From: an uncultured archaeon
GTDB taxonomy: Archaea > Thermoplasmatota > Penumbrarchaeia > JASLWR01
Assembly: GCA_964342815.1 (NCBI GenBank)
Contig: CAYFHS010000001.1
Span: forward strand, 243,849 to 307,848
DNA: 64,000 bases
Reading direction: 5' to 3'
Position numbers and translations under genes: made by a program
The notes under the pieces: model-generated
Told to the model about the DNA's origin: nothing
What the model saw: the letters and a program-made list of their open reading frames with translations, nothing else
Database searches by the model: none
In this document: positions 43,105 to 43,573 of the stretch, piece after piece
Position numbering within the stretch: the first letter of the stretch is position 1
Layout of the letters: the number at the start of each line of letters is the position of its first letter

Positions 43105-43573
43105 ATAGAAACGCAGTTTCTATTAACCCCGACATTGCATCGCGGATGCAATTAGGGCTAAGTGAAAGGTTGTTTCACTGTCGCCTAATAAAATCTCTGA
43201 TTTTATGTTGGGAAACAGCAGAATGCCTGTTTTGCTCCGGTGACTTTTCAAGTCTCCTGCACCCTCGGGAGTTTACTCTCTGCGGGTACACCCGTTTTCA
43301 AACGGGGGATGAATGGACCTGTAGCTAGACTTGGCGAAGGTACAGCAAAGCCTGAAAGGGTTTGCGTAATGAAATGCGCATCTTCGGGTGTTTCCGAGGA
43401 TACCCATTTCATTCCTGTCAATCAAAGATACTCGACGAAATAAGTTTCGTCTGTACCCTCGGGATGTATCCCTGCGGGTTGTTCTGCATCCTCGGCTAGT
43501 GAGCCTGCGGATGCAGTTGTATCTCGATGCAACGGAGTATAACGGGTAAGATCAGAAGAATCTTTGATTCTTC
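43105..43573 (+). ncRNA. Candidate large structured RNA (or ssDNA element): ~15 back-to-back hairpins
   Basis: Stems at 43105-23, 43134-52, 43161-79, 43188-206, 43213-32, 43242-54, 43261-87, 43291-306, 43319-45, 43345-65, 43381-400, 43434-51, 43455-79, 43484-516, 43516-33, 43555-73; G-T pairs favour the + strand. Confidence 0.55.

Follow-up and report, generated by a model that had tools for sequence, protein, structure and literature searches.

Results

A hairpin-dense element lies between two giant surface-protein genes

The 64,000-nt stretch of DNA analysed here (hereafter, the window) belongs to a metagenome-assembled genome of 4.35 Mb in 116 contigs that is 89% complete (G000). The element under study is hosted by the spacer at 42683-44899, which separates two divergent genes predicted to encode giant surface proteins. 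The left gene (36602-42682, minus strand) encodes 2026 aa with beta-helix/NosD, Big_5, PKD and four C-terminal zinc ribbons, and the right gene (44900-50068, plus strand) encodes 1722 aa with laminin-G, PKD and Big_9; dozens of paralogs of the latter protein are present in the sister genomes. The element runs from 43089 (TTTATCCGCAGG) to 43600 (ending in AAATGTGGGTTG), is followed by TTCAT at 43601-05, and is without a credible ORF.

Folding calculations showed that the element is exceptionally rich in secondary structure. We counted 14 non-overlapping simple hairpins (stem of at least 6, loop of 3-8) in 43089-43607, as compared to 6.5 ± 1.9 (maximum 13) in 200 dinucleotide shuffles. The minimum free energy was −192.4 kcal/mol for the plus strand (z −8.2) and −175.1 kcal/mol for the minus strand (z −8.1), with no shuffle equally stable on either strand. 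Rfam covariance models gave no match at or above the gathering score anywhere in the window, and at E ≤ 10 returned noise alone in the region 42650-44950 (E > 6); no tRNA or tmRNA genes were found in the window. The original prediction, made from the letters alone, had described a dense array of hairpins with a motif repeated three times and no resemblance to a known RNA family. The hairpin count, the fold energies (far better than those of shuffled sequence on both strands), the recovery of the three motif copies as written to within 1 nt (43261-87, 43455-79 and 43488-512), and the lack of Rfam, tRNA and tmRNA matches confirm that observation.

The element is assembled from modules of two hairpin families, which are dispersed over the genome as detailed below. 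In the F1 family, a constant GYA/GA internal loop is flanked by two stems, the outer one of CCC/GGG type and the inner one variable; in the F2 family, the internal loop is GAC/TA. The features of the element are as follows.

43089-43600, no strand assigned: the complete composite, made of a PATE-like "carrier" (5' end TTTATCCGCAGG, 3' end GGGCAAATGTGGGTTG) that harbours smaller, nested hairpin repeats
43092-43100, plus: carrier hairpin of F1 type, 5' arm (ATCC-GCA-GG), pairing with 43390-43401; the arm's continuation GAAAC (43212-16) is split off by the 111-nt "domain 1"
43099-43128, plus: F2 module 1, GGT-GAC-ATAGAAAC-gca-GTTTCTAT-TA-ACC; near-identical copies on contigs C13, C14, C18, C20, C71 and C74
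43128-43157, plus: F2 module 2, CCC-GAC-ATTGCATC-gcg-GATGCAAT-TA-GGG, of the genome-wide F2 pattern
43156-43185, minus: F2 module 3, inverted, GGC-GAC-AGTGAAA-caacc-TTTCACT-TA-GCC, of the genome-wide F2 pattern
43183-43212, minus: F2-like module 4, degenerate, read from the sequence as CCC-AAC-ATAAAATC-aga-GATTTTAT-TA-GGC; 88-91% matches at C17:43517, C22:30517 and C25:15778
43261-43287, minus: F1 module (first motif copy of the original prediction), ACCC-GCA-GAGAG-taaa-CTCCC-GA-GGGT on the minus strand, where its single A.C corresponds to G.T on the plus strand; in C6 and C21 the orthologous copies pair perfectly
43317-43376, plus: "U1" two-hairpin unit, in which an F1 hairpin (43318-40; CCT-GTA-GCTA-gact-TGGC-GA-AGG) occurs together with another hairpin, GCAAAGCC-tgaa-AGGGTTTGC, plus a tail
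43390-43401, plus: carrier hairpin of F1 type, 3' arm (GTTTCC-GA-GGAT), pairing with the 5' arm 43092-43100 plus 43212-16
43420-43486, minus: "U2" unit, consisting of an F1 module (43456-78, second motif copy) and the hairpin GACGAAA-cuua-UUUCGUC; copies with 79-82% identity at C7:90667, C79:2544, C1:86 and others
43489-43511, minus: F1 module (third motif copy), TCC-GCA-GGCT-cact-AGCC-GA-GGA, of the genome-wide F1 pattern
43601-43605, no strand assigned: TTCAT, the invariant 3' flank of the carrier, following every copy examined (ATGAA on the other strand)

The first 110 nt of the element consist of four F2-family hairpins (plus, plus, minus and degenerate minus), which together form domain 1 (43101-43211). 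This 111-nt domain interrupts the canonical 5' end of the carrier after CCGCAGG, whereas the same arm is unbroken (TTATCCGCAGGAAACAGCAG) in the copies on C19, C21, C6 and C1b. In this copy, inserted modules amounting to about 290 nt lie within the carrier's own hairpin. Near the other end, positions 43482-43549, beside the third motif copy, are 91% identical to C19:38702-38770. A long-range pairing of 43306-16 with 43403-15 had been proposed; it is possible, but competes with a perfect 9-bp pairing (43367-75 with 43405-13) that the minimum-energy fold uses instead. A closure with better support pairs ATCC-GCA-GG..GAAAC (43092-43100 plus 43212-16) with GTTTCC-GA-GGAT (43390-43401), and is intact in the shorter copies of the carrier.

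The hairpin modules form genome-wide repeat families

Searching the element against its own assembly retrieved 29 significant matches, no two of them to the same part of the 491 nt, and a more permissive BLAST search yielded about 100 matches, nearly all of them intergenic. Comparable hairpin arrays, drawing on overlapping sets of these modules, make up other spacers of 350-600 nt (on C6, C1 at 86 kb, C21, C19, C7, C32 and others). Within these arrays we could define a carrier subfamily with common ends, TTTATCCGCAGGAAACAGCAG ... GGGCAAATGTGGGTTG followed by TTCAT, and a length ranging from about 170 to 520 nt. Such ends occur also at C1:86069-86365, C19:38608-38784, C21:1843-2010 and C6:113678-~114055, as well as at four loci (L010, L015, L038 and L039) of a genome from the same genus (G001). 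The differences between aligned carrier copies are clean insertions or deletions of whole modules.

To obtain an unbiased view of the modules, we took a census of every genomic hairpin composed of an outer stem, an internal loop and an inner stem, and tallied these hairpins by loop sequence. Among the 640 possible types of 3x2 loop (median count 18), GTA/GA (147), GAC/TA (93) and GCA/GA (57) stand out, and the 2x3 class is topped by the reverse complements of these same three loops. Reduction to unique sites left 86, 39 and 31 occurrences, respectively; relaxed rules gave 123 F1 modules (GYA/GA) and 33 F2 modules (GAC/TA), of 22-33 nt each. The motif of the original prediction, CC-UC-GG...CC-UGC-GG, is the F1 module seen on the opposite strand. 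Like REP and BIME repeats, which measure 20-40 nt, F1 and F2 modules are short imperfect palindromes that occur in many copies outside genes, and the apparent matches within genes are accounted for by short ORFs that are spurious or by gene starts that are over-extended. A second hairpin-dense cluster was seen in the window at about 53300-53580, with a U1 unit at 53475-53532 (plus strand) and an F1 module at 53537-53561 (minus strand).

The stems of these modules vary widely while remaining paired. The 5' arms of the F1 inner stems comprise at least 54 different sequences, all of them paired, and the 60-nt U1 unit (an F1 hairpin, a second hairpin and a tail) was found by nhmmer in 52 copies in the genome, with both stems covarying. 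The covariation around constant internal loops that had been noticed at the locus is thus real, but it is a property of the repeat family throughout the genome. A kink-turn reading of the GUA/GA loop was considered and rejected by reasoning from the sequence, as the G.A/A.G register would displace the inner stem by two and disrupt its perfect Watson-Crick complementarity.

Modules occur in both orientations and in mixed clusters

F1 modules are split 62/61 between the two strands. Module orientation shows no bias relative to the flanking genes (13 co-oriented versus 20 anti-oriented GTA/GA modules), and modules are found alike in divergent, convergent and tandem spacers, including 16 GTA/GA modules in divergent promoter regions. 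We identified 28 clusters of 2-6 modules, in which orientations are mixed and inverted pairs of F2 modules (B+B-) recur. The cluster at the present element is the largest in the genome and reads B+ B+ B- A+ a- a-. Clustering in alternating orientation is the arrangement seen in BIMEs and REPINs; such mixed, BIME-like orientation is hard to square with a single RNA in which one and the same loop would be displayed again and again.

G-T pairs had been taken in the original prediction to mean that the plus strand folds. This does not hold in general: across the family, wobble pairs favour the GYA/GA strand (15 modules versus 4 on the other strand, the copies not being independent), and this is the minus strand for three of the four F1 modules here. 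The asymmetry hints that one strand is the folding strand, either as single-stranded DNA or as RNA. Together, covariation and wobble asymmetry show selection for, or generation of, a structure on one strand, and they fit single-stranded DNA and RNA equally.

Filled and empty sites between related species

Comparison with the genome of the same genus provided an orthologous spacer, whose flanking genes share 77-81% protein identity with those of the window and whose promoter-proximal DNA is 86-92% identical. The whole block 42933-44519, comprising the hairpin element, a small ORF and a 23-bp tandem array, is missing from this spacer, and a 67-nt F1 unit is inserted in it exactly between the positions corresponding to 42853 and 42854 of the window. 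The same spacer carries an intact gene (L031:1043-2089) for a YhcG/DUF1016 PDDEXK nuclease of 348 aa, of which G000 keeps two short remnants (44520-44566 and 44574-44618); the spacer has been remodelled in this species.

Presence and absence of whole elements was also observed elsewhere. When 23 module-bearing loci of G001 were compared with G000, the counterpart was shorter or empty for most of them. Nucleotide alignments revealed carriers of about 470 nt (L038), 339 nt (L015), 243 nt (L010) and 215 nt (L039) in G001 that are absent from G000, and conversely a 61-nt unit at L045 that is present in G000 and absent from G001; U1-type units, too, are present or absent at orthologous sites. No target-site duplication was found in the filled/empty alignments (L010, L015, L038, L039, L045 and L031), and the aligned carriers have no terminal inverted repeats, so that the two hallmarks of classical MITEs are both lacking. 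The carrier ends, TTTATCC-GCA-GGAAAC... and ACCCACATTT..AAATGTGGGT, are not mutually inverted and each lies within a hairpin. Such ends, and insertion without target-site duplication, are features of PATEs and of non-autonomous elements derived from IS200/IS605. Presence/absence differences between species could in principle also reflect precise deletion instead of insertion.

The four aligned empty sites in G000 read TTCAT, TTCGT, GTCCT and TTATT, that is, one identical to the flank of the carriers, one TTCGT, and two differing from it at two positions. Since TTCAT (ATGAA on the other strand) follows every carrier, it would be either the last five bases of the element or a preferred target, as in IS200/IS605 elements; a conserved target of 4-6 nt beside one end is typical of PATEs and other non-autonomous derivatives of IS200/IS605. 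Several carriers are flush with stop codons (C21:1836-1850 and C1:86363-86365 in G000; L015 and L068): TGA|TTTATCC is formed at the 5' end of the carrier, and the TCA of the TTCAT flank serves as the stop of a minus-strand gene.

The repeats are restricted to three related species

The F1 core pattern (CCCGTAGGN{6,22}CCGAGGG) occurs 25 times in G000, 33 times in G001 and 43 times in a genome of the same family (G003). Counts are 0-2 in each of 38 further relatives, among them another genus from this family, and likewise 0-2 for reversed-pattern controls. One exact 23-nt F1 variant was found, beyond G000, in only two genomes among 185,579 GTDB species representatives, "Thermoplasmatota archaeon ETNP2_MAG_1" and "uncultured archaeon SRP077602_co2_347", which are G001 and G003. 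Judged by these searches, the repeat family is confined to three related species. The exact F1 variant had no matches in IMG/VR viral contigs. A shorter carrier-end pattern gave 31 matches in viral contigs, which we discarded as chance occurrences: their flanks are without the carrier 5' end and hold 3 loose F1-pattern matches in 260 kb.

Search for a mobilising enzyme

A Y1 transposase (PF01797) or TnpB (PF07282) had no match in G000, where, with the assembly 89% complete, absence is not proven; TnpB was found in none of the four family members (G000-G003). The two sister genomes with the repeats, G001 and G003, both encode Y1 transposases, which are of the IS200 type, with HuH plus YIERQ/YIKEQ. 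Y1 genes occur in 2 of the 3 repeat-bearing genomes as opposed to 4 of the 38 genomes without repeats, a co-occurrence that is only suggestive because the genomes are related. These are stand-alone IS200-like genes of 155-163 aa (L018:1423-1890 and L020:1405-1896 in G001; L019:1465-1956 in G003) with flanking hairpins of their own (for example, CCAGCCCCTAAAGGAGCTGG). The flanking sequence common to L019 of G003 and L020 of G001, which belong to different genera, suggests that an IS200-type element is active in this family.

No F1/F2 modules or carrier ends were found in the flanks of the sister Y1 genes, and the hairpins flanking them are dissimilar. Likewise, no gene of G000 is flanked by modules on both sides, and neither a cognate RAYT (TnpA-REP) flanked by REPs (in G000, G001 and G003) nor a co-resident IS605-type transposon with ends akin to those of the carrier was found. 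Scanning metagenomes with the carrier end for an autonomous parent retrieved two contigs only, which match L038 and L042 of G001 and have no gene inside the element. A 178-aa ORF located between two F1 modules on a short contig of G003 was rejected as a candidate; it has no Pfam match and is unlike the small ORF of the window.

A small ORF and a tandem array adjoin the element

Next to the element lies a small ORF (43612-44043, minus strand; 144 codons open) with about 10 paralogs in the genome at 70-74% nucleotide identity; the window copy lacks their ATG, and a Pfam search gave no match. Upstream of this ORF is a tandem array of 10.5 units of 23 bp (44235-44476; unit GGACATTTGTCAGGTGATACAGG), and similar arrays are seen near some of the paralogs. 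The ORF and the array may together constitute a small cassette of their own, either mobile or regulatory. Between them, at 44103-44135, a G-rich box plus GAGTGAAAGTAAAA (GGGGGGAGGGGGGTGAGTGAAAGTAAAA) occurs about 13 times in the genome, upstream of members of the small-ORF family, with a partial copy at 44164-44177; this box may be the promoter or operator of that family.

Discussion

Our results show modules that are dispersed, lineage-restricted, intergenic, present in both orientations and self-nesting, and that differ between species by presence or absence of whole elements without target duplication. We therefore consider it very probable that the element at 43089-43600 is a conglomerate in which pieces of mobile hairpin DNA, non-autonomous and REP/BIME/PATE-like, are nested in one another, rather than a conserved RNA gene. 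In this organism the element probably has no dedicated cellular function at its locus, and any effect on neighbouring transcripts would be secondary.

REP-RAYT systems have been described for bacteria, and their archaeal counterparts are known mainly as the PATEs of haloarchaea. Bacterial REPs, BIMEs and REPINs are built of repeats tagged with GTAG/GYAG and CGTC/TGTC (PMC3733652, PMC2817692, PMC6006769), and a 2013 survey recorded GTAG repeats in bacterial phyla only (PMC3733652). The present modules share with them the extragenic, short imperfect palindromes in roughly 10^2 copies, stems that differ among sub-families while staying paired, clusters of alternating or mixed orientation, several families per genome, and lineage specificity. 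Two of their sequences recall the bacterial tags: the inner stem of F1 has GYAG (GTA-G or GCA-G) at its 5' foot, and F2 carries TGTC on its opposite strand. Unlike REPs, however, they reside in an archaeon (Thermoplasmatota), no RAYT or REPtron was found with them, and they nest in each other's loops to form arrays of up to about 500 nt. Their tag, moreover, is not a free 5' tail but faces GA (or UA) across a 3x2 internal loop, which an outer stem of 3-6 bp encloses. REPs of the GTAG superfamily have an unpaired GT[AG]G tetranucleotide at the 5' foot of the hairpin; in F1 the inner stem invariably has GTA-G or GCA-G at its foot, but within the internal loop opposite GA, a layout not described for bacterial REPs (PMC3733652).

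The closest archaeal parallel is found in Haloquadratum walsbyi, in which small mobile repeats (SMR-A) nest in the palindromes of PATEs, whose ends match those of co-resident IS605-type transposons in haloarchaea (PMC3119063). As with PATEs, the carriers are archaeal and too short to encode a protein, have near-terminal palindromes with neither inverted terminal repeats nor target duplication, and keep a conserved short terminal or target oligonucleotide; their copies are heterogeneous, their insertions are strain- or species-specific, and other small repeats insert in their palindromes to yield conglomerates. The two differ in that the present host belongs to another phylum, the likeness being one of architecture, and in that the repeat-bearing genomes have no TnpB, while their IS200-like TnpA loci have different end hairpins. 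Three features set the repeats apart from known kinds: the Thermoplasmatota host, the tag clamped in a 3x2 loop between stems, and the fact that no cognate RAYT or parent of IS605 type was found.

A single large structured RNA, transcribed over some 500 nt from the plus strand and folding into several domains whose repeated UC/UGC loops bind protein, was the reading favoured by the original prediction. It has in its favour the very stable fold, with the plus strand 17 kcal/mol more stable than the minus, the covarying stems, and the lack of an ORF or Rfam match; like the large bacterial RNAs OLE, GOLLD, ROOL, HEARO/omega RNA and raiA, the element is several hundred nucleotides long, ORF-free and highly structured. 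Yet the minus strand lies equally far beyond its own shuffles, and modules of one family point both ways inside the element, so that only some would present the same loop in the RNA. The element is also absent from the same-genus orthologous site despite the well-conserved promoter DNA around it, its relatives shrink or grow by whole modules between about 170 and 520 nt, and module orientation is unrelated to neighbouring genes. In contrast to these large Rfam RNAs, the element is a multi-copy mosaic of mixed-orientation modules, has no Rfam match and is not kept at its orthologous locus. We regard an RNA gene as very unlikely: dispersed repeats make up the mosaic that the original prediction took for an undescribed RNA with modules that bind protein, and elements of the carrier subfamily are polymorphic in presence. 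The prediction had named a hit to a MITE as evidence against its reading, and the dispersed mobile repeats amount in effect to such a hit; the prediction was right that no known RNA family is present. Also very unlikely, and slightly more so, is a reading in which the element would serve as an origin-like region within a cryptic replicon or an integrated element, together with the winged-helix-like ORF (43612-44043, minus strand) and the iteron-like array of 23 bp x 10.5 (44235-44476). The three parts adjoin one another, and the block that holds them is missing as a whole from the orthologous spacer; against this, none of the roughly 10 paralogs of the ORF is joined to this hairpin element, the paralog matches start at or beyond 43626, past the element end at 43600, other carrier copies sit beside unrelated genes, the ORF has no Pfam match and in the window lacks the ATG of its paralogs, and the three-part arrangement was not seen at other loci.

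A mobile origin would be compatible with use by the host, as transcription-stopping or mRNA 3'-protecting RNA hairpins, or as DNA sites at which a nucleoid or topology protein would recognise the GYA/GA loop. Among RNA motifs, the G-bulge (sarcin-ricin/loop E) has 5'-GUA/5'-GA as its core. Such use would suit the carriers that lie flush with stop codons, a constant 3x2 loop with free stems that resembles a protein-recognition module, and wobbles that are tolerated mainly on the GYA strand, and REPs do have such host roles in bacteria (PMC3733652, PMC6006769). On the other hand, the modules have no orientation bias with respect to flanking genes, many of them lie in divergent promoter regions, and most sites are not common to sister species, which means that site-specific functions are not conserved. 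On balance, host use of this kind seems rather unlikely.

On the reading as mobile hairpin DNA, a carrier of about 110 nt, with subterminal hairpins and no inverted terminal repeats, has been filled by 30-nt F2 hairpins and by 60-nt two-hairpin F1 units. Movement could be of the IS200/IS605/REP-RAYT type, a cut-and-paste of single strands in which hairpins are recognised, with the constant asymmetric loop as the putative protein-recognition feature and the flanking TTCAT (ATGAA) as the putative target or cleavage site. A putative HUH-type enzyme may act on the repeats in trans, as circumstantial evidence from the sister genomes would suggest. The original prediction had offered a functional single-stranded DNA structure as its alternative; this comes near to the mobile-repeat reading, in which the hairpins would be substrates of transposition of the single-stranded DNA type, though such a role is inferred only.

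As a tentative extension, which we think somewhat doubtful, F1 and F2 may constitute an archaeal REP-like system that is independent of RAYTs. In such a system, the GYA/GA and GAC/UA loops would be read by a structure-specific protein, either a domesticated IS200-like TnpA or a member of a new family, that spreads the repeats and possibly has a host role on single-stranded DNA or RNA.

Recognising the stretch as mobile DNA removes a false lead, that of a new giant non-coding RNA. Scans of these genomes will go on flagging similar arrays as "novel structured RNAs", and repeat masking should come first. The clamp-like F1 module, with its tag inside the internal loop, and the self-nesting of the repeats provide a defined substrate for finding the enzyme. 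For this marine lineage of Thermoplasmatota, the filled and empty sites document active, modular hairpin repeats of the REP/BIME-like kind.
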